Shown piece after piece: positions 8,952 through 60,730 of a stretch of DNA of 64,000 nucleotides. The position numbers were made by a program, and so were the translations under genes. The DNA is from Acidobacteriota bacterium (GTDB taxonomy: Bacteria; Acidobacteriota; UBA890; WLXD01), in the NCBI GenBank assembly GCA_963666055.2, contig CAXWPH010000011.1, positions 160,001 through 224,000 on the forward strand, read 5' to 3'. The notes beneath the pieces were generated by a model. The model had not been told where the DNA came from. It searched no databases and saw only the letters and a list, made by a program, of their open reading frames with translations. Each line of letters begins with the position of its first letter. Position 1 is the stretch's first letter.

Positions 8952-10877
8952 ATGGACTCCTGGGCCCCCGCCGCAGCTTCGGCGACGAGAAGTCGCCGCC
9001 TGCCCTTGCTGGCAACAGTCGTTCTCGGAGCACTCTTTCTGCTCCCGCTGACCGGACGATCCCACATCATCCGCGAGGAACCCTGGCACCCGGTACCAGC
9101 GGCGTATCTGCGCAGCATGTTCTACCTGAAGCTACAGCCGGTGAACTGGACGCTAGTCGCTGCGGAGTTCGAGGGCGTGCGTGAGAGCGGTTGGCAGCTC
9201 GACTCGGTCTACGACGGCATCGCGCTGGCCACAGAGCTCGAGGGCACCGACCACACGGCAACGATCCGCGCCGCCATCGCGGCCACCGATGCAGAGTCGT
9301 TTTCGGCTTCGGCCACGCGAGCGGTGTCGCAACTCGTGCGGTTACATCTGCGGCGCGCGCTGGCCAATCTCGACGCGCCAGGGGCAGCCCTCGAGGAGGT
9401 GCATCAGGCCAGCCGGATGTTCCGTGCATTCGACCGATTCGTGCGTGCCACCGACTCGCAGGGCGCTCGAGAACTGGGCCGTGCGTGGCTCGAGCTGACC
9501 ACGACGGTGGGCACAGCCGGAATCGGGAATCGCGGCGTGAAGCCGGTCGACAGGGAGCGTTTCGCCAGCGCCGCCGAGACCGTGGAGGCTTACCTCACCG
9601 CCAACTACGAGCGCGACGGCGGGCCGAGCATGACCCACTTCAACCCGGTTCCGGCGATCGGTCGCAACTCGACAGCCGGGGTGGCGCCCTGGTTGCCGCC
9701 GGCCACCGACCTCAACGACCAGGATCCTCTGCCCCGCCTGGTGCTGAACTTCGAGGAGCGCGGCGTCGACGAGAAAGATCTGTTCCTGGTGACCTACGGG
9801 GACATGCTCTTCGATTCGCCGCAGATCTTCGGCGAGCCGGCGCTCAGCCTCGGTCTCTCGTGCTCGCGTTGCCATAACCGTAGCGACATCAACCAACGGT
9901 TCTTCATCCCGGGAATCAGCACGCGTCCCGGCAACGTCGACGTCGACGGACACTACTTCAACCCGCGCTTCAACGATCGCCGCGCCGACGCGCTCGACAT
10001 CCCGAGCTTGCGCGGCCTCCGGTTCACGGCGCCCTATGGCCGCGACGGCCGTTTCGCAAGCCTGCGTAACTTCACCCGGAACGTCGTGGTCAACGAGTTC
10101 GCCGGCGAGGAGCCCTCGCCGTTGATGCTCGATGCTCTGGTCGCCTACATGTTCGAGTTCGATTGGCTGCCGGCGCCCTACCTGCAGCCTGACGGCCGGC
10201 TCAACGACGCCGCTTCCGACTCCGCCCGGCGCGGCGAGGTACTGTTCAATCGCCCGTTCGACGGCATGGGCGGACGCGCTTGCAGTACCTGTCATGTGCC
10301 GAGCAACAACTTCCTCGACGGCCAGCGACACGACATCGGTAGCGGCGAACGGTCGAGCCCGGGCGCTCGGGACACGTTCTTCGACACGCCGACGTTGATC
10401 GGCGTGTTGCACACTGCGCCGTACTTTCACGACGGGTCGGTGGTAACTCTCGCCGAAGTTGTCGATTGGCTCGATGATCAGTTCGACCTCGGCCTCGACG
10501 ACAACCAGCACTCCGACTTGACGATCTACCTCGAGACGGTGGGCGAAGGCACAGACCCGTACGAGGTGTTCGACGAGGACAACACGCTGTTCCAGCTGTT
10601 CTGGGGTGAGCTGTCGACGTTTGCCTCGACCCTGTCGACGCTCATTCCTGCGCGCGACGCCGAGCACGCCGACCTCATGCTGCGCACAGTCGCCGCCGAC
10701 TTGAGACTCGACGCCTCGGCGCTCGAGAATCTGGCACAGGCACCCAAGGTCTTCGAGCTCGCCGACCAGCTCGACGATATCCGTGCGTCAATCGACGCCG
10801 ACGATTGGCGCCGGGCGGCGCAGCTGTGGATCGAATACCAGGCGCTCGAAGCCGCTTACGGACCCGATTTCCGCTGA
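8952..10877 (+). CDS. Exported di-heme cytochrome c, bacterial CcP/MauG superfamily, with extra N- and C-terminal helical domains
   Basis: Signal peptide; CSRCH and CSTCH; IPSLRGLRFTAPYGRDG and TPTLIGVLHTAPYFHDG family motifs. Confidence 0.85.
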   Translation: MDSWAPAAASATRSRRLPLLATVVLGALFLLPLTGRSHIIREEPWHPVPAAYLRSMFYLKLQPVNWTLVAAEFEGVRESGWQLDSVYDGIALATELEGTDHTATIRAAIAATDAESFSASATRAVSQLVRLHLRRALANLDAPGAALEEVHQASRMFRAFDRFVRATDSQGARELGRAWLELTTTVGTAGIGNRGVKPVDRERFASAAETVEAYLTANYERDGGPSMTHFNPVPAIGRNSTAGVAPWLPPATDLNDQDPLPRLVLNFEERGVDEKDLFLVTYGDMLFDSPQIFGEPALSLGLSCSRCHNRSDINQRFFIPGISTRPGNVDVDGHYFNPRFNDRRADALDIPSLRGLRFTAPYGRDGRFASLRNFTRNVVVNEFAGEEPSPLMLDALVAYMFEFDWLPAPYLQPDGRLNDAASDSARRGEVLFNRPFDGMGGRACSTCHVPSNNFLDGQRHDIGSGERSSPGARDTFFDTPTLIGVLHTAPYFHDGSVVTLAEVVDWLDDQFDLGLDDNQHSDLTIYLETVGEGTDPYEVFDEDNTLFQLFWGELSTFASTLSTLIPARDAEHADLMLRTVAADLRLDASALENLAQAPKVFELADQLDDIRASIDADDWRRAAQLWIEYQALEAAYGPDFR

Positions 10878-12664: not shown

Positions 12665-13473
12665 GGTCTGATGCCCACACGGCCAGCCCCGCTGCCCCTG
12701 CGCCACCCGAACAGAGTCTGGGCACGACGCTGCGTCGCTCCACCGGGATGATTGCTCTGGCTGTGGTGGTCGCTTGGGCGTGGCACGGTACCGGCTTCGA
12801 GCTCAGCCGCCTGGGCGGCAGCCTCGCGCCACTGATCGAGTTCTTAGACCGCATGACCCCACCGGATCTGTCGGCACTCGAAGTGGCGATGAGATCGACG
12901 GCCGAGACGCTCCAGATCGCCGTGCTCGGGACGTTCTTGGCCGTCGTCCTGTCGATACCGCCGGCGTTGTTGGCGGCGGCGAACCTAACGGCGGCGTGGA
13001 TCCACCAGCCGGTGCGCTGGCTTCTGGCGCTGCTGCGCGGTATTCCACTGCTGTTGCTGGCACTGATGTTCGTTGCTGCGCTTGGCTTGGGACCCGTACC
13101 CGGCGTGCTCGCCGTGGCCGTGCATTCGGTCGGCATGCTGGCCAAGTTCTACGCCGACGCCTTCGAGAGCGCCCGGCCGGGCCCCATCGAAGCGCTCGAC
13201 TCCGCCGGCGCCAACTGGCTCCAGCGCGTACGCTACGGTGTGCTGACGCAGGTAGCGCCCGATCTGGCTCGCGACACGCTGTTCCGCTTCGAGCTGAACC
13301 TACGCGAGTCGCTGGTCTTAGGCCTCGTCGGTGCGGGCGGTATCGGCTTCTACATTCAGCTCTACATCCGTTCCTTCCGCTACACGAGGGTGGCCACCCT
13401 GACGCTGGTGATCCTGGTGATCGTCGTGCTGGTAGAACAGGGCAGCGTCGCGATTCGTCGCCGGCTCAGCTGA
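12661..13473 (+). CDS. ABC permease, PhnE/PtxC-like
   Basis: ETLQIAVLGT, LAKFYADAFE..GPIEAL and RFELNLRES.LGLVGAGGIG; ATGA overlap with the ATPase. Confidence 0.9.
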   Translation: MRSDAHTASPAAPAPPEQSLGTTLRRSTGMIALAVVVAWAWHGTGFELSRLGGSLAPLIEFLDRMTPPDLSALEVAMRSTAETLQIAVLGTFLAVVLSIPPALLAAANLTAAWIHQPVRWLLALLRGIPLLLLALMFVAALGLGPVPGVLAVAVHSVGMLAKFYADAFESARPGPIEALDSAGANWLQRVRYGVLTQVAPDLARDTLFRFELNLRESLVLGLVGAGGIGFYIQLYIRSFRYTRVATLTLVILVIVVLVEQGSVAIRRRLS

Positions 13474-13489
13474 GACGCGGTTGTCTCCC

Positions 13490-13801
13490 CTACCCCGCCC
13501 GGCGCTCGGCGATCAGGCTGGCGGCGAAGCCGTCGTAGTCGGCAGCGCGACGCTGCAGCATGTCGCGCAGATGCTCCAACGCCTTCTCCTTGCTCGATAG
13601 CCCGTACATGTAGATCTTGAGCGGGCCGATCAAGCCGAGGTAGTAGTGGTTGGTGGCGTCGTACTCGGCGGCGCAGGCGCTCGGATCGATGGCGACTGCG
13701 AGCAGATCGTCGAAGGTGTCGGCGAACTGCGCCAGCAGCGGTTCCCGATGTAGGTCTGTCGGAATCTCAGGGAAGCGAGTGACGAGGTCTTGGACGGTCA
13801 T
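13490..13801 (-). CDS. Hypothetical protein (~103 aa; start may be 13879)
   Basis: MTVQDLVTRFPEIP...PSACAAEYDATNHYY; typical codon usage. Confidence 0.6.
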   Translation of the reverse strand: MTVQDLVTRFPEIPTDLHREPLLAQFADTFDDLLAVAIDPSACAAEYDATNHYYLGLIGPLKIYMYGLSSKEKALEHLRDMLQRRAADYDGFAASLIAERRAG

Positions 13802-13915
13802 CGGGCTTGGGTCCGGGAGTTGATCTGCGGCGGCGATCGACAACGCAGTAGTCCAACACTCTATACGCTGCGCCGCCATCAGCCCTCCCGTCGCTGCGAA
13901 GAATCACCAGTGCGG

Positions 13916-14265
13916 CTACGGCTTTTTCTCCAGAACCCGGAGAGTATAGGGTGAGGATTGCCGCGCCGGACGATCCTCGATCCAGTCGAGCACTTCGGCG
14001 CGAAAGCGCACCGGTTCGTCGACGGAATCGAACCGGTCGATATCCTTCACCTGCGAAGACCTGGTTAGAGCCGACCCAACGGATCCGATCCGAGGACCTC
14101 CTCGACGCCAGCGACATCTCCCAGCGCGGAAATCGCCTGCTGTGTCGTCTGCCGGTTGCAGGGCAGGAACAGCATCACTTCAACCGCATGAACTTCGGCG
14201 GCCGCCGCACGGGCGACGCCCAGCGCCACGAAAGCCATTAGCACGACCTTCGTCCAGGGTTTCAT
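13916..14265 (-). pseudogene. Second exported HMA-like protein, frameshifted or internally deleted
   Basis: AAGGAGG RBS and ATG 14265; signal peptide, then AEVHAVEVMLFLPC...ALGDVAGVEEV; TAA at 14065. Another frame continues QVKDIDRFDSVDEPVRFRAEV...YTLRVLEKKP* to 13916. Confidence 0.5.
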
Positions 14266-14420
14266 GATGGCCTCCTTGTCGCTGCAGGTTGGATGTCTGA
14301 GAGCCTCGCTTTCTTCGCCGGGCGCGGAGGAATCCGTCACCGACGCCACAGCCCGATGAAACGAGCCTGGCGTGCTGAGCGGCTGAGCAAGTCGAAACGC
14401 CCGAGCGGCGACGACTTGCG

Positions 14421-15434
14421 TCAGGAACCTCTGGCGAAACGCTGCACCCGCGAGGCGGCGAAATCGGCCACGTAGAGGCGGCCTTCGGAATCGACGTCGA
14501 TGTCGGCGGGCGAGTAGATGCGCCGCGTGCTCCGGTACCAACGCTCGGCGGCACGGGACACGAGAAAGACCTGTCCGGACGGGTCTAGGCCCTGGACTCG
14601 AAAGTTGGCGCTATCGGCGACGAACAGATTGCCCTCCGCGTCGGTGGCGAGGCCTACGGGGACTTCCCACTCGCCGGCCTCCGCGCCCTTGCGTCCCCAA
14701 CCCTCGCGGAGGGTGCGGTCGGACTCGAACACGAGGATCTCGTAGGCGTGGGTATTACTGACATAGAGCGTGTCGTCCGGCCCGACGGCAGCGTCGCTGG
14801 GGAAGACGAACAGGTCGTGGGGATCGCCCGGTGTGGCCATCATCGACATCTTCGTCTCCTCCATCCCGCGGACCGGCGGGCGGTTCTGAGCGTAGCGGCG
14901 CGCGGAGTCACCGCCGTCGATAAAGCGTATGAAGTTGCCTTCGGAGTCGAGCTCCTGGACACGCTGGCCCATGAACTCCACGACGATGACATTGCCCGTC
15001 GGCGTGACCGCCACGCCGCTGGGAGCCTGGAACTGACCGGCACCCGTTCCGCGCCCTCCCCATACCTCGAGCAGCTTGCCATCGCGGTCGAGCAGCAGCA
15101 GCCGATCGCCGGTGTAGTCGGTCACCAAGATCGTCCCGTCGAGCCGTTCCGCCAAGCCGACCGGCCGCGTTCCCTCGGGCAACGCCCATTGGTCGATCGG
15201 CGTGCCGTCGGCGTCGTAAACGACGATCCGCGAGGCACCGTCGGCGACCATTACCCGCCCAGACATGCTGACAGCAATGCCCATGGGATGATCGAGGGAG
15301 CTGCCCTCGGGGCCAGCTTCTGTCCACTCGGCCTCGAGCTCGAGCGTGCCGACGAGCACCTGACCGAGCGTGCCGACCGCGCCGGTCAGAACCCCGGCGA
15401 CGATCACCAAGCGCACCCAGCGCCAGCGCCTCAT
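14421..15434 (-). CDS. Exported NHL-repeat (beta-propeller) protein with a Met-rich insertion
   Basis: Repeats HPMGIAV, RPVGLAE, GQFQAPSGVAV, FPSDAAV, VPVGLAT and SPADIDV; insert GMEETKMSMMATPGDPHD; ATGA overlap with the upstream gene. Confidence 0.85.
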   Translation of the reverse strand: MRRWRWVRLVIVAGVLTGAVGTLGQVLVGTLELEAEWTEAGPEGSSLDHPMGIAVSMSGRVMVADGASRIVVYDADGTPIDQWALPEGTRPVGLAERLDGTILVTDYTGDRLLLLDRDGKLLEVWGGRGTGAGQFQAPSGVAVTPTGNVIVVEFMGQRVQELDSEGNFIRFIDGGDSARRYAQNRPPVRGMEETKMSMMATPGDPHDLFVFPSDAAVGPDDTLYVSNTHAYEILVFESDRTLREGWGRKGAEAGEWEVPVGLATDAEGNLFVADSANFRVQGLDPSGQVFLVSRAAERWYRSTRRIYSPADIDVDSEGRLYVADFAASRVQRFARGS

Positions 15435-15988
15435 TCGTCGCTGACGCTCCCTTGTACCTGCACGGTGACAGGGGCCTTATCATCGGCTCGAGTGGCTCGA
15501 CCGTAGAGCGTCATCGACCCGGGCGGTGCAACCCTGAACGCGGCGAGAGCCTCCCTGCCTCGCTCGTCGCCGGCGACGAGCAGAAACCGCTGCCCACTGC
15601 TCTCGCTCACTAACCAGGCTGCCGTCTCGTTCGTGGCAATCGCCGGCAGGTCATTGGTGTCGGCGATTCCCCGCAGCCAAACCGTCACCCCAGTCGGCGT
15701 GAAATCGACCTTGGACACACCCGCTTCGAGCGCGGCGGGATCGAACATCGCGTCGGGCGTGAACGTCACGGTGATCAACCCTCGCTCCAGATCTTCCTTC
15801 GTGTCGGCAACGCCTTCCAGGCGTTGTAGGGATCGATTGATCCCGTAGGCTCAGAGCCCTCACGTCATCCCGTCGACACCGACCTCCGCCTTGATGACCT
15901 GGGCGGTAACGGGCGCGGCGACGAGCATCGCGAAGAACAGCCCGACGCCGACGGTGATCAAACGCCGACTTTCGGTTTGGTGGCTCAT
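15431..15988 (-). CDS. Exported HMA-domain selenoprotein with UxxU motif (GMT-U43-GL-U46), 185 aa
   Basis: AGGAGG RBS, ATG 15988 and signal peptide. VGVDGMT-TGA(15862-15860)-GGG-CTC-TGA(15853-15851)-AYGINRSLQRLEGVADTKEDLERGLITVTF continues in frame into ORF 15431..15778. Confidence 0.85.
15808..15844 (-). promoter_or_regulatory. Two tandem SECIS-like hairpins
   Basis: GGGATC-AATC-GATCCC (15844-15829) and CAACGCCT-GGA-AGGCGTTG (15826-15808), directly 3' of the two UGA codons. Confidence 0.6.
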
Positions 15989-16020
15989 GTCGACCCTCCT
16001 CGAGTCGAGGCGTCCATCTT

Positions 16021-16962
16021 TCACGGGACGATGATGTAGCGTAGGCCGAATAGCACGTTGATACTCGGCGCCAGCTGCGTGCCGTTGAGGTAACGAACCG
16101 CGGGGAGCTGCACACCGGCCTCGACGACGAAGTTGGGCCGCAGCAGGTACTGGATTCCGGGGGAAAGATACAGGAGGTTTCCGCCTGAACTGTCGACTTC
16201 CTGGTCGCCGGCGCGCGAGTGTCCCTGCCAACGGCCGTTGAGCTCCAGTAGCAAGAAGACGTCGCGGGAGCGCAATGACGAGATCCGTGTCTTGACCATA
16301 GCATCGTAGCGGAACCGGTCGCCAAGCTCGAAATCGTTGGCCTCCGTGCTTCGCGAGACGCCGACACTGGCAGTGAAGAACCAGCGGGCGGAAGGGGTCA
16401 CATAGCTTGCGATGAAGTCGGCGGTCGGGTCCCAGGATCCAGTCCCACGTTGGAGCGGCGGCGACAACAACTGCCCGTTCGATGAGTCGCGCGCGTCGCC
16501 GCGACCGGTCGGGGTCTTGACACCGCCCTGAAACGACAGCTGGACTCCTCCTCTGCCGCGATCCCGCTTCAGGAAGCGCCACTTGACCAGCAGGGTCGCA
16601 TCGCCGAAGCCCAGGCCGGCTCCAAGACGCTCTGTGCCCGCCGGGCCGTCGATTCGCATCTCCTTGTCGAGTACCGGGAATACGCCGATCAAGCTGACCT
16701 TGCGGTGCAACCCGTACACCACGGCCATCGATACCACGCTTGCTTTGAACCTACGCCCCAGAGGGTTGGGGACCTGCGCGCTGCCGCTCAGCGTGTCGTT
16801 GGCCTGCAGGAAGCTCGCCACGGTGCGGATGCCGAATCCGGAGATGAACTCCGCTCGCGCCCCCGGCGCGAAGATCTGGGCGCTCGACTCCCCGGGCCAA
16901 CCAAGAGTCAACGCCAGCACCGCGTACAGTGCCGGTCGCGATATGGTCGCTTTGCTGTTCAT
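16021..16962 (-). CDS. Outer-membrane beta-barrel 'transporter' family protein
   Basis: Signal peptide ending SSA-Q; GFGDATLLVKWRF, GVKTPTG, LQRGTGSWD and LYLSPGIQY. Confidence 0.8.
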   Translation of the reverse strand: MNSKATISRPALYAVLALTLGWPGESSAQIFAPGARAEFISGFGIRTVASFLQANDTLSGSAQVPNPLGRRFKASVVSMAVVYGLHRKVSLIGVFPVLDKEMRIDGPAGTERLGAGLGFGDATLLVKWRFLKRDRGRGGVQLSFQGGVKTPTGRGDARDSSNGQLLSPPLQRGTGSWDPTADFIASYVTPSARWFFTASVGVSRSTEANDFELGDRFRYDAMVKTRISSLRSRDVFLLLELNGRWQGHSRAGDQEVDSSGGNLLYLSPGIQYLLRPNFVVEAGVQLPAVRYLNGTQLAPSINVLFGLRYIIVP

Positions 16963-17100
16963 GCTGCTTCGTCGCTTTCCGCCGCGGCGCGGTCGCCGAA
17001 CGGCCCCTCTCGTCCGATCGCATCCAGAATCGGGCACTCGCCCACGGGCCCCTCTCCCTCGCACTGTCGCGCAATCGCATCAGCGCACACCGCATTTGAC
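16959..17100 (-). pseudogene. C-terminal remnant of a metal-sensing MerR-family regulator (CueR/ZntR/MerR type)
   Basis: QMRCALMRLRDS [1-nt shift] CEGEGPVGECPILDAIG...EAA*; its TGA overlaps the ATG of the barrel gene; no intact HTH seen upstream. Confidence 0.7.
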
Positions 17101-17368
17101 TCGAGCACCCAGATCGCCGGCTAGCTCGACAGTACCGTATTGGCAGATACGTCATGCGGACCGCGAAATTGACGCCGTAGACAAGCCGCGTCCAGGGTCG
17201 CCCGGCTACAGTTGGGCTCGACGAGTTCCACCGCGCCGGAAAACTGCTGCGGACCGTAGACGTATTGCATCATTAGATCATTAACGTAGCCACCGCTGCT
17301 CCGGGGTTGGGCAAGCGTCTCGTCGGTCCAGATCCTTACCCCGGCGGAACCGCGCAGCGGGCGCCTGG

Positions 17369-18253
17369 GTGCGGCAGGCAAGCGCGTTCCACAACCGCGT
17401 CACTGCCGACGGCTCATCGGGCTTCACTGCCGAGGCCGGGCGCTATCATCTGTACGTCTCCTATGCCTGTCCCTGGGCTCACCGGACAATCATCTTCCGC
17501 CGCCTGAAGGGGCTCGAGGAGTGCATCGGCATGACCGTCGTCGACCCGATCCGCGACCAGCGCGGCTGGGCCTTCACCGGCGCGGCAGGCAGTGAGCTGG
17601 ACCGGCTGAACGGCTTCGATTTCCTCAGCGAGGCCTACCTGGCCAGCAACCCCGGCTTCGACGGCAGGGTGACGGTACCCGTGCTCTGGGACCACCAGGA
17701 GCGAATGATCGTCAACAACGAGTCGTCCGAGATCATTCGTCTGCTCAACTCGGAGTTCGACGCCTGGGGCAACGCCGAAGCCGATTACTACCCGGCTGAG
17801 CTACGCGCCAAGATTGACGCGATCACCGAGCTCATCTATCCGAACATCAACGACGGCGTCTACCGTTGCGGCTTCGCCACCTCCCAGGCAGCCTACGACG
17901 ACGCCATCGCCGCGCTCTTCGCGACCCTCGATCAGCTCGAGGAGCGGCTGGCGGGCCACCGCTACCTGGTGGACGACACGATCACCGAGGCAGACTGGCG
18001 CCTGTTCACGACCCTGGTGCGCTTCGATCCGGTCTACGTCACCCACTTCAAGTGCAACGTCCGGCGACTCATCGACTACCCCAACCTCTGGGGCTACACG
18101 CGTGACCTGTATCAGCAGCCCGGGATCGCGGACACGGTGAACCTGGACCACATCCGGCGCCACTACTACGTCACCCACCGCAGCATCAATCCGCACGGGA
18201 TTATTCCGGCGGGCCCGGAGATCAACTACTCGACCCCGCACGGGCGTGCCTGA
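17369..18253 (+). CDS. Glutathionyl-hydroquinone reductase (Xi-class GST, YqjG-like); start uncertain
   Basis: RYHLYVSYACPWAHR, VTVPVLWD, NNESSEII and RFDPVY.HFKCN. Confidence 0.93.
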   Translation: MRQASAFHNRVTADGSSGFTAEAGRYHLYVSYACPWAHRTIIFRRLKGLEECIGMTVVDPIRDQRGWAFTGAAGSELDRLNGFDFLSEAYLASNPGFDGRVTVPVLWDHQERMIVNNESSEIIRLLNSEFDAWGNAEADYYPAELRAKIDAITELIYPNINDGVYRCGFATSQAAYDDAIAALFATLDQLEERLAGHRYLVDDTITEADWRLFTTLVRFDPVYVTHFKCNVRRLIDYPNLWGYTRDLYQQPGIADTVNLDHIRRHYYVTHRSINPHGIIPAGPEINYSTPHGRA

Positions 18254-59228: not shown

Positions 59229-60317
59229 ATGTTGGCACGCGATCATTACGCTACTTTGGGGGTTCCACCCGACGCCGACGCTGATCAGGTCGAGGGCGCC
59301 TATCGGCATCTCAGCCGCCGCTATCATCCGGACATCAACCCGGGGGATCCGCACGCCGCGACGGTTTTCGAACGCATTCAGTCAGCCTACCAGGTGCTCT
59401 CGGATCCGCAGCGCCGAGCCCGCTACGATCGCGAAGGCTCAGTGGTGGACTCTATCGAACCGACCGTACCGGACCTCACCGTGCGGGTAGTGCCGGAAGG
59501 CACCGAGCCCGGCACATACGGCGACCTGTTCCGACACCTGAAGGATCATCGCCGGCGCTCCAGCGCGCAGCGCGGCAACGATCTCTACGTCGACGTCAGC
59601 GTTGCCCTGGTGGATTCCGAGCGCGGCCGGAGGACGACTGCACGAGTCACCCGTGACGACCGCTGTGAGGACTGCGGTGGACGCGGACGGGTGCAGCTGC
59701 AGCGGGCGCGACCGTGTAACACCTGTCGCGGTAGCGGCCAGGAGACCTTCGTAAAGGGTGCCCTGTCGGTGACCTGTGGGTGCGCTGACTGCGACGACGC
59801 CAGCGGCCTGCTCCGCGGCGTCCCATGCGTCCGCTGTGCTGGTCAGGGCATCTGTTCGCGCACCGAGACGATCCTCATTCGCGTGCCTCCCGGTGTCATC
59901 GATGGGCAGGAAATCCGCGTCGCCGGGCAAGGACACTGCGGTCGGATCGGCGGCGAGCGCGGAGACCTGATTCTCCGTTGTCGCGTTGAACCGGCCCGCG
60001 GGTTCCGGCGCGAGGGCCCACACCTTTACACCCGGCAGCCGATCTCGCCGCTCGAGGCGATCCTGGGGGGCCGCATCGACGTGCCGGCACTCGGCGGCGA
60101 TCAGGCCAGCCTACCTCTGCCCCCCAACACGCAGACCGGCCACGTCTTCAGGCTTCGTGGCCGCGGCCTCGAGCTGCCGGACGGGCGGCGAGGGGATATG
60201 CTGGTGCGCGTCGAGGTGCATCTCCCCGAAATCCTCGACGAAGATTCCAAGGAGATGGTTCGACAGCTCGCAGCGCGCCACCCCTTCAACCCACGCAACC
60301 GCGAAGGCGAGCCCTGA
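59229..60317 (+). CDS. DnaJ-family co-chaperone (divergent paralog)
   Basis: J domain with HPD, four CxxC repeats (third atypical) and a DnaJ C-terminal domain. Confidence 0.88.
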   Translation: MLARDHYATLGVPPDADADQVEGAYRHLSRRYHPDINPGDPHAATVFERIQSAYQVLSDPQRRARYDREGSVVDSIEPTVPDLTVRVVPEGTEPGTYGDLFRHLKDHRRRSSAQRGNDLYVDVSVALVDSERGRRTTARVTRDDRCEDCGGRGRVQLQRARPCNTCRGSGQETFVKGALSVTCGCADCDDASGLLRGVPCVRCAGQGICSRTETILIRVPPGVIDGQEIRVAGQGHCGRIGGERGDLILRCRVEPARGFRREGPHLYTRQPISPLEAILGGRIDVPALGGDQASLPLPPNTQTGHVFRLRGRGLELPDGRRGDMLVRVEVHLPEILDEDSKEMVRQLAARHPFNPRNREGEP

Positions 60318-60730
60318 TGATGAGCGCCGATCCCAGGCGGAAGAAGGGCACCTACATGATCAGTGCGGTGGCCGAGCGCTACGAGATCCATCCTCAGACG
60401 CTGCGGCTGTATGAGCGCGAGGGGCTGTTGCGACCATCGCGCTCCGGCGGCAACACTCGCCTGTACGATGACGAGGACTTGCGTCGGCTCGAGGTCATCC
60501 TGTCGCTGACCCGCGACCTCGGCGTGAACCTTGCTGGGGTAGAAGTCATCCTCAACATGCGCCAGAACATGGAGCGACTCCAGAACGAGGTCGCCGAGCT
60601 GATGTGTTTCGTCCGCGACGAACTGACCATCGACGATCAGAGGTTGTCGACCGAGTTCGTCCAGGCGCTGGTGCGAATCGAGCGGAGCGCCCTGGTGCGG
60701 CAGCGTCCGCGGACCACCGAGGACAGCTAG
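60317..60730 (+). CDS. hspR: Heat-shock repressor HspR (MerR family)
   Basis: YMISAVAE..IHPQTLRLYEREGL.PSRS.GNTRLY and LGVNLAGV; follows dnaK-dnaJ. Confidence 0.92.
   Translation: MMSADPRRKKGTYMISAVAERYEIHPQTLRLYEREGLLRPSRSGGNTRLYDDEDLRRLEVILSLTRDLGVNLAGVEVILNMRQNMERLQNEVAELMCFVRDELTIDDQRLSTEFVQALVRIERSALVRQRPRTTEDS

Follow-up and report, generated by a model that had tools for sequence, protein, structure and literature searches.

Which metal, if any, is handled by a small exported protein in which both metal-ligand cysteines of an HMA domain are replaced by UGA codons, and what do the genes beside it contribute? The question is raised by a locus in a 64,000-nucleotide stretch of DNA (here denoted the window) from an Acidobacteriota bacterium (GCA_963666055.2, contig CAXWPH010000011.1, positions 160,001 to 224,000). 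The locus comprises a remnant of a merR regulator gene, a gene for an outer-membrane barrel, the gene of the HMA-domain protein (denoted Sec-HMA), a gene for an NHL propeller and a second HMA-like gene (denoted HMA2). All of them lie on the minus strand, and their coordinates, like all others given below, are positions of the window (Table 1). A preliminary description of this DNA had proposed a metal-inducible operon for selenium-based handling of heavy metals in the periplasm. Here we describe a conserved envelope gene set that is predicted, from sequence comparison, to act as a periplasmic trap for thiophilic metal ions, with Hg(II) as the likeliest, a reading to which we give about an even chance. 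If it is right, a phylum of soil, sediment and marine bacteria would have an undescribed, selenium-dependent way of handling mercury-type metals in the envelope. The classical MerT-MerA route would play no part in it, and this would bear on mercury cycling and on the natural coupling of selenium and mercury.

Both UGA codons are very probably read as selenocysteine

The 185-codon frame of Sec-HMA is open only if TGA codons 43 and 46 are read through, and several observations suggest that both are very probably decoded as selenocysteine (Sec, U). The TGA-x-x-TGA motif falls exactly on the CxxC position of the HMA domain, and the conserved open frame continues for 139 codons past the second TGA. 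We fetched 40 loci and read the gene in 38 relatives; in all 38, each of the two TGA columns holds either a Cys or a TGA codon. The 39 family genes, the window gene included, comprise 20 with UxxU, nine with UxxC, two with CxxU and eight with CxxC, and the two columns are the same throughout; as TGA flags mainly guided the choice of the second batch of loci, the counts cannot be taken as frequencies. Many relatives with one or two TGAs within the match were also detected when 401 genomes of the phylum were searched in six frames. The genome that holds the window encodes SelA (450.8 bits, above the curated cut-off), SelB (367.5 bits against a cut-off of 242.25), SelD (326.6 bits against 125) and two tRNA-Sec genes with anticodon tca. 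The motif position, the alignment of Cys and TGA codons and the presence of this machinery together uphold the preliminary description, which had taken the gene to encode a Sec-containing HMA protein.

Two hairpins follow the UGA codons. Candidates for the selenocysteine insertion sequence (SECIS) were taken from minimum free energy (MFE) folds and from pairing in the codon alignment, and not from a bacterial SECIS model. The distal hairpin, our best candidate, is paired in 97.6% of the cells of an ungapped codon alignment of 12 UxxU genes; two of its seven pairs show changes on both sides, and the two Gs of its loop are invariant. The same columns are only 36.7% paired in seven CxxC genes. 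MFE folds detected the distal hairpin in all eight additional UxxU genes and in none of nine UxxC genes. The proximal hairpin (helix 1) is 79% paired in the 12 UxxU genes, with a register that varies between clades. The UxxC relatives (L058, L083, L085-L092) mostly have a single hairpin, about nucleotides 13-31 past the UGA, where UxxU relatives have two. This difference is a hint that the second hairpin serves the second UGA. Two UGAs 9 nt apart, followed by paired hairpins, would make this gene a test case for the way in which bacterial SelB deals with closely spaced Sec codons.

Gene callers stop at the first TGA, and 11 of the 12 database entries for Sec-HMA are C-terminal fragments of 104-113 amino acids; surveys of metal resistance and of selenoproteomes are therefore expected to undercount the protein. 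The contigs of three public sequencing runs break exactly at the UGA-hairpin stretch (15800-15863), and several extra short contigs of high depth, with one to five differences each, cover the same positions. We considered paralogues within the same genome as their source and ruled them out, because the stretch is single-copy there. Other organisms in the samples would thus share a stretch of about 56 nt nearly letter for letter.

The HMA domain is joined to an OB-like domain

The protein read through both TGAs matches the HMA family PF00403 with an E value of 2.2e-9. An AlphaFold model built from a 19-row alignment reached a predicted local distance difference test (pLDDT) score of 86.8. It shows an N-terminal helix (the signal peptide) followed by the HMA domain and by a further domain with five strands and a single helix. 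Its HMA part resembles the structures of CopZ, MerP and the metal-binding domains of ATPases, with template modelling (TM) scores of 0.7-0.9. Modelled alone, the C-terminal domain reached a pLDDT of 89.5. A Foldseek search of the PDB with this domain gave no match at E <= 0.001; the weak matches (E ~4e-3, TM 0.5-0.6) are all OB folds, among them anticodon-binding domains of tRNA synthetases and single-stranded DNA-binding proteins. No Cys, His or Met is conserved in this domain across the family alignment. An OB-type small beta-barrel is also the fold class of the periplasmic metallochaperone CusF; unlike CusF, the domain shows no conservation of a Met, His or Trp site.

A profile search of 1.84 billion representative proteins returned mostly multi-HMA ATPases, together with at least 30 proteins of 167-221 amino acids that match nearly the whole profile in one stretch. 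One of these comes from a Calditrichota metagenome-assembled genome. Their source names are automatic and include 'copper chaperone CopZ' and 'mercuric ion binding protein'.

Two described kinds of protein come close to Sec-HMA. UxxU selenoproteins of the HMA fold are already a curated kind, NF041115 ('UxxU_metal_bind'), which likewise has both metal-ligand Cys replaced by Sec. The NF041115 model covers a single domain of 74 positions, whereas the window protein has 185 residues with a signal peptide and the OB-like domain, is paired with an outer-membrane barrel, and, with 35.5 bits over residues 33-84 only, stays below the cut-off of 95. MerP (TIGR02052; PDB 1osd, 1afi) is likewise an exported HMA protein with the motif GMT-C/U-x-x-C/U, is matched structurally by the HMA part, and resembles our family in that relatives of the HMA protein adjoin MerR and MerT-like genes. 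The window protein differs from MerP in having Sec for Cys, an extra C-terminal domain and, as partner, an outer-membrane barrel in place of MerT; it scores 30.5 bits with the MerP model, whose cut-off is 92.55.

Some relatives show other arrangements. In P0012, a protein of 177 amino acids from a public contig, a MerR helix-turn-helix (HTH) of about 50 residues is followed at once by the post-Sec portion of an HMA-OB protein, 41% identical to the window protein; it is either a deletion fusion of merR with the downstream gene or an assembly chimera. In genome G398 (L051:8010-9773), a UxxU HMA-OB protein extends into a BNR/sialidase-like domain of about 400 residues, 588 in total, and separate homologues of that domain adjoin the module in two other genomes, at L042:9073-10986 and L043:2748-4079. 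A subfamily with the motif G-A-T-U-A-T-U (L056, L060, L077, L080, L081) likewise lies next to a barrel gene, and in L056 an AhpC/redoxin gene is found nearby in place of MerR.

A barrel gene accompanies the HMA gene in most loci

The gene-neighbourhood comparison that the preliminary description had called for shows that the set recurs, with the pair of barrel and HMA gene found across the phylum. Profile hidden Markov models built from our alignments were run over six-frame translations of the 40 loci, which had been chosen by HMA similarity and TGA flags and include kin that are not independent. In 35 of these loci a barrel gene is found no more than ~450 bp from the HMA gene; the HMA gene encodes the C-terminal domain in 37 loci, and these include all 35. 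Eleven of the 40 have an adjacent NHL gene, and 12 contain a MerR gene. From these counts, the barrel and the HMA-OB protein form the stable core, with NHL and MerR as common accessories. The order of the genes varies between barrel-HMA-NHL, barrel-NHL-HMA and HMA-barrel-NHL. Further genes close by are MerT-like open reading frames (ORFs) in nine loci, heavy-metal P-type ATPases in seven, zf-CopZ-like ORFs in six, MerA-like flavoproteins in three, small thioredoxin-like proteins in two to three and BNR-like proteins in three, one of the latter fused to the HMA protein.

The products are predicted to act in the envelope of a diderm cell: the genome has five Omp85 matches over the cut-off, and all four proteins (barrel, Sec-HMA, NHL and HMA2) begin with basic and then hydrophobic residues. 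Judged by eye, these are the export signals that had been noted before.

The barrel matches PF13557 with an E value of 1.5e-11 and 45.2 bits, above the gathering score of 22. Its mature length of ~285 residues falls within the range of 270-320 stated for COG4313 channels, and its invariant residues are Gly, Pro and Asp together with a PTG motif, P151-T152-G153, that is invariant or nearly so. A phmmer search of PDB sequences with the barrel found no relative. Family, length and motif are shared with the COG4313 channels Pput2725, TcpY and SphA (PMC4493636) and with FapF. The structure paper on COG4313 reports a 12-stranded barrel and proposes that it passes hydrophobic molecules. According to the FapF paper, no known structure is closer to FapF than this COG4313 channel, and the PTG motif is common to both. 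The known members are tied to uptake of hydrophobic organic compounds or to amyloid export, and not to metal operons. Complex prediction for barrel residues 30-313 (37 rows) with the C-terminal domain of the HMA protein (41 rows) gave scores of 0.00, 0.51 and 0.00, which fall on both sides of the mark of 0.32.

The NHL protein matches PF01436 with an E value of 1.2e-24, and its PDB matches are generic NHL propellers only (TRIM71, the designed Pizza proteins, PknD). Some orthologues have a lipobox-like Cys past the hydrophobic stretch; the window protein has none. The Met-rich insert that had been noticed in this protein is real and spans residues 176-202. As a trait of the set it does not stand: among 12 aligned orthologues it occurs in three (the window, G069 and G082), all from genus g1, to which the window genome and the same-genus genome G069 belong. 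The Met-rich loop is thus genus-specific and not a property of the system.

Regulators and neighbours favour a thiophilic divalent metal

Nine MerR-type regulators are encoded within the recurring loci. Seven of them score best with TIGR02051, the model of the mercury regulator MerR, all under its cut-off (the highest at 146.2 bits against 150.85). Seven of nine carry a Cys at the position that, in the literature on MerR, CueR and ZntR, marks sensors of +2 ions as opposed to CueR. Five of nine, as well as the remnant in the window, show a C-x8-C-P spacing, which is that of the Tn501-type mercury MerR. The ATPase adjoining the set in L052 scores as the Zn/Cd/Hg/Pb type. From the features of the MerR proteins we infer that Hg(II) or another thiophilic divalent ion is favoured.

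Predicted function and relation to known systems

If both TGAs are read as Sec, the HMA fold would present a bis-selenolate site, with an expected affinity for Hg(II) or another soft metal above that of CxxC. The OB-like domain, in which no Cys, His or Met is conserved, may be a docking module. The barrel, whose family is described as channels for hydrophobic molecules, may pass a metal species or a neutral complex across the outer membrane, and the NHL propeller, in those operons that have one, would be a scaffold or an acceptor. In the window genome, the core genes would be expressed constitutively or under another control.

The idea can be carried further, to a proposal that we think rather unlikely: a MerA-independent envelope route for mercury-type metals, widespread in the phylum, in which the bis-selenolate HMA-OB chaperone would seize the metal in the periplasm and the hydrophobic-substrate channel would help to exclude or expel it, for example as a neutral or selenium-bound species. 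The two UGAs would then be decoded by means of two tandem hairpins, and UxxC relatives would make do with the single proximal one.

The set differs from the systems that are known. Of the mer operon, a functional MerR together with MerT (or MerC/F) and MerA is not found here, and merR is a stub. The family scan of eight window ORFs detected no MerA, P-type ATPase or RND (resistance-nodulation-division) pump, in line with the preliminary description. With CusF/CopC-type chaperones of the cus, cop, pco and sil systems the predicted Sec-HMA protein shares its nature as a small exported binder of metal in the envelope; the RND pump, multicopper oxidase and CopD of those systems are absent from the eight window ORFs and from 115 neighbouring ones, and the only match to CusF (E 0.055) falls on the signal peptide of HMA2. 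The earlier remark that the set is not recognisable as a described mer, cop, cus or sil system agrees with the MerP score and with the missing genes.

The literature that we searched contains no paper that ties a COG4313/PF13557 barrel or an NHL protein to MerR, HMA or mercury. Main-text passages of the Haft preprint on new selenoprotein families do not mention the module. Sec forms of individual proteins are on record: a review (PMC13188914) lists those of a mercuric transport protein and of a cation ATPase, and the GOS (Global Ocean Sampling) paper lists a Sec 'MerP'. The earlier view that the system is not a described one can therefore be kept for the gene set, which has not been described in this literature, and not for the UxxU HMA protein, a kind already known from NF041115. 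A conserved, selenium-using envelope metal module with no described counterpart in the literature searched is a statement that we consider right in kind.

Alternative explanations

Several findings weigh against capture of Hg(II) by this set. The assignments of its MerR proteins all lie below curated cut-offs, with the CueR and ZntR models close behind, and CopZ, at 36.3 bits, heads the NCBIfam matches of the HMA domain by a narrow margin over NF041115 and MerP. In the window's own genome (95.7% complete) neither MerT nor MerA was found over the cut-off (the best MerA-like match has 395 bits against 454.45), which leaves the set without a mer pathway that it could supply. The family alignment of the barrel shows no conserved soft-metal ligands; across the 12 NHL orthologues no Cys, His or Met is conserved, and the residues that are conserved are repeat-structural only. 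The link of barrel and NHL protein to metal thus comes from their neighbourhood only. Since the loci were chosen by HMA similarity and TGA flags and include kin, the share of loci with a barrel overstates the independent support. The Met-rich loop of genus g1 points rather to Cu(I)/Ag(I). Finally, the genus may be losing the module: merR and HMA2 have decayed in the window, and the barrel gene of G069 is frameshifted in one assembly.

A module for Cu(I)/Ag(I) and not for mercury, in which the HMA protein would be a periplasmic chaperone similar to CopZ or CusF and, in this genus, the Met-rich NHL loop would add a site, is unlikely in our view, with a chance that still counts. Besides the CopZ match and the loop, it would fit the zf-CopZ-like genes close to six of the loci, the one MerR of nine for which CueR is the best-scoring model and in which the Cys typical of +2 sensors is missing, and the public name 'copper chaperone' of Cys-form relatives. 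The names, however, are automatic. Most of the module MerRs (7/9) score best as the mercury regulator, and as many carry the extra Cys; MerT-like genes lie in nine loci, and the ATPase in L052 is of the Zn/Cd/Hg/Pb type. A Pfam scan of the 115 neighbouring ORFs, from 20 loci, detected no multicopper oxidase, CusCBA or CopCD, a further point against copper or silver.

The barrel might instead be a FapF-like exporter, and the HMA-OB selenoprotein a metal trap at the surface or outside the cell, not a periplasmic chaperone; we consider this improbable. Among PDB sequences the barrel profile matches FapF alone (E 1.3e-4), which is a secretion channel of 12 strands. The barrel gene is closely linked to the HMA gene, its product lacks metal ligands of its own, and, as the FapF paper states, FapF is structurally closest to a COG4313 member with which it has the PTG motif in common. 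The match is weak, however, and covers ~94 profile positions. The characterised COG4313 members are described as uptake channels for small hydrophobic molecules, and nothing like the Fap helper genes appears in the neighbourhoods scanned.

A further possibility, also improbable and somewhat more so, is that the locus no longer functions in this genome and is a decaying remnant. Decay is evident in two of its genes. The merR stub aligns with the C-termini of the nine module MerRs and corresponds to positions 100-135 of the 138 in their profile; with the same profile, no HTH was found in any frame of 16900-17700. G069 carries a similar stub, and the ratio of nonsynonymous to synonymous substitution rates (dN/dS) between the two, computed like all such ratios here against G069 with our own NG86 script, is 0.48. 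The module-MerR profile detected no other metal-type MerR in the genome; the only ORF that it matches genome-wide (~59990-60730, plus strand) does so with the HTH half only, lacks the metal loop and looks HspR-like. The module is therefore not inducible here by its own MerR, contrary to the metal induction that had been proposed. HMA2, which the preliminary description had counted as a second binder, is a pseudogene. Relative to G069, where it is intact (167 amino acids from its ATG at 9495), the window copy has a 152-base internal deletion and one extra base, and we reject it as a working binder on these grounds. A profile comparison by hhalign relates HMA2 to the HMA family as a distant single-Cys paralogue (probability 86%, E 4.8e-6). 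To these signs of decay can be added the lack of MerT and of MerA over the cut-off, and the barrel of G069 (L041:6859-7798), which lies in two frames, residues 1-99 and 100-313, a frameshift in that assembly.

The core genes, however, look maintained. Barrel, Sec-HMA and NHL gene are intact in the window, with dN/dS values of 0.23 (barrel residues 100-313), 0.32 and 0.17, respectively; PhnE, taken as a control, gives 0.11. The costly Sec codons and the hairpin have been retained, and another public assembly holds an intact barrel of 341 amino acids that is 86% identical. Since these genes are intact at such ratios, they appear to have been kept while regulator and paralogue were lost, and the three are likely still in use in this genome. 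The window copy would then show how such a module decays, with its regulator and paralogue lost and its core under purifying selection.

Very improbable is a redox role, in which UxxU/CxxC would be the centre of an envelope oxidoreductase system that acts, for example, on selenium, tellurium or sulfur species or in disulfide exchange. In its favour, bacterial selenoproteins with motifs of the UxxC type are mostly redox proteins (PMC13188914), small thioredoxin-like genes lie within operons L048 and L053, and AhpC/redoxin genes lie beside the GATUATU subfamily in L056. Against it, G-M-T-C/U-x-x-C/U on a ferredoxin-like HMA fold matches metallochaperones at the TM scores given above, the regulators are MerRs of the metal type and the neighbours are metal transporters.

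Organization of the locus

The genes are co-oriented, and two of their junctions are ATGA overlaps, as had been reported: at 16962-16959 the TGA of the merR stub overlaps the ATG of the barrel gene, and at 15434-15431 the stop of Sec-HMA overlaps the ATG of the NHL gene. Between them, a gap of 32 bases separates the barrel gene from the Sec-HMA frame.

Table 1. Features of the locus, in window positions.
Feature	Position	Strand	Description
merR remnant	16959..17108	minus	49-codon ORF, C-terminal metal-binding loop (C-x8-C-P-I-L) only
Barrel	16021..16962	minus	313 aa, COG4313 / Phenol_MetA_deg family, signal-peptide-like N-terminus
Sec-HMA	15431..15988	minus	185 aa: signal peptide, HMA domain with GMT-U43-GL-U46 (Sec predicted), OB-like C-terminal domain (~96-185)
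TGA1 (Sec43, predicted)	15860..15862	minus	in frame, codon 43 of Sec-HMA
TGA2 (Sec46, predicted)	15851..15853	minus	in frame, codon 46 of Sec-HMA
Proximal hairpin	15829..15844	minus	GGGAUC-AAUC-GAUCCC, 15 nt past UGA1; candidate part of Sec-insertion signal
Distal hairpin	15808..15826	minus	CAACGCC-UGGAA-GGCGUUG, invariant loop GG; best SECIS candidate
NHL propeller	14421..15434	minus	337 aa, hydrophobic N-terminus, no lipobox Cys
Met-rich NHL insert	14829..14909	minus	27 residues, D176-P202, ...GMEETKMSMMATP
HMA2 pseudogene	13916..14265	minus	degenerate single-Cys paralogue of the HMA protein
HMA2 pieces	14265..14065 (66 codons) + 14050..13916 (44 codons)	minus	out of frame with each other
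129-aa ORF	13490..13879	minus	co-oriented, no family match

A sigma-70 scan gave no sites in 13300-17500. A MerR-type operator was not identified; one short palindrome lies upstream of the merR stub. Pfam and NCBIfam scans gave no family match for the 129-aa ORF or the other short ORFs. The only relative of the 129-aa ORF is in G069, with a dN/dS of 0.69, and its membership in the module is doubtful.

The contigs of the three public runs, which come from two studies, equal the window with no differences over 13490-15830 and 15807-17400; these runs are possible source samples of the assembly and so are not independent of it. The locus is flanked by a phosphonate-type ABC transporter on one side and by a GST-like (glutathione S-transferase-like) gene, argR, argG and argH on the other. 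The GST-like gene (17369-18253) sits between the merR stub and argR and has no match in the 20 loci L041-L060, the syntenic locus of G069 among them. In G069, argG and the stub are about 700 bases apart, and the two genomes thus differ in the junction next to the truncated merR.

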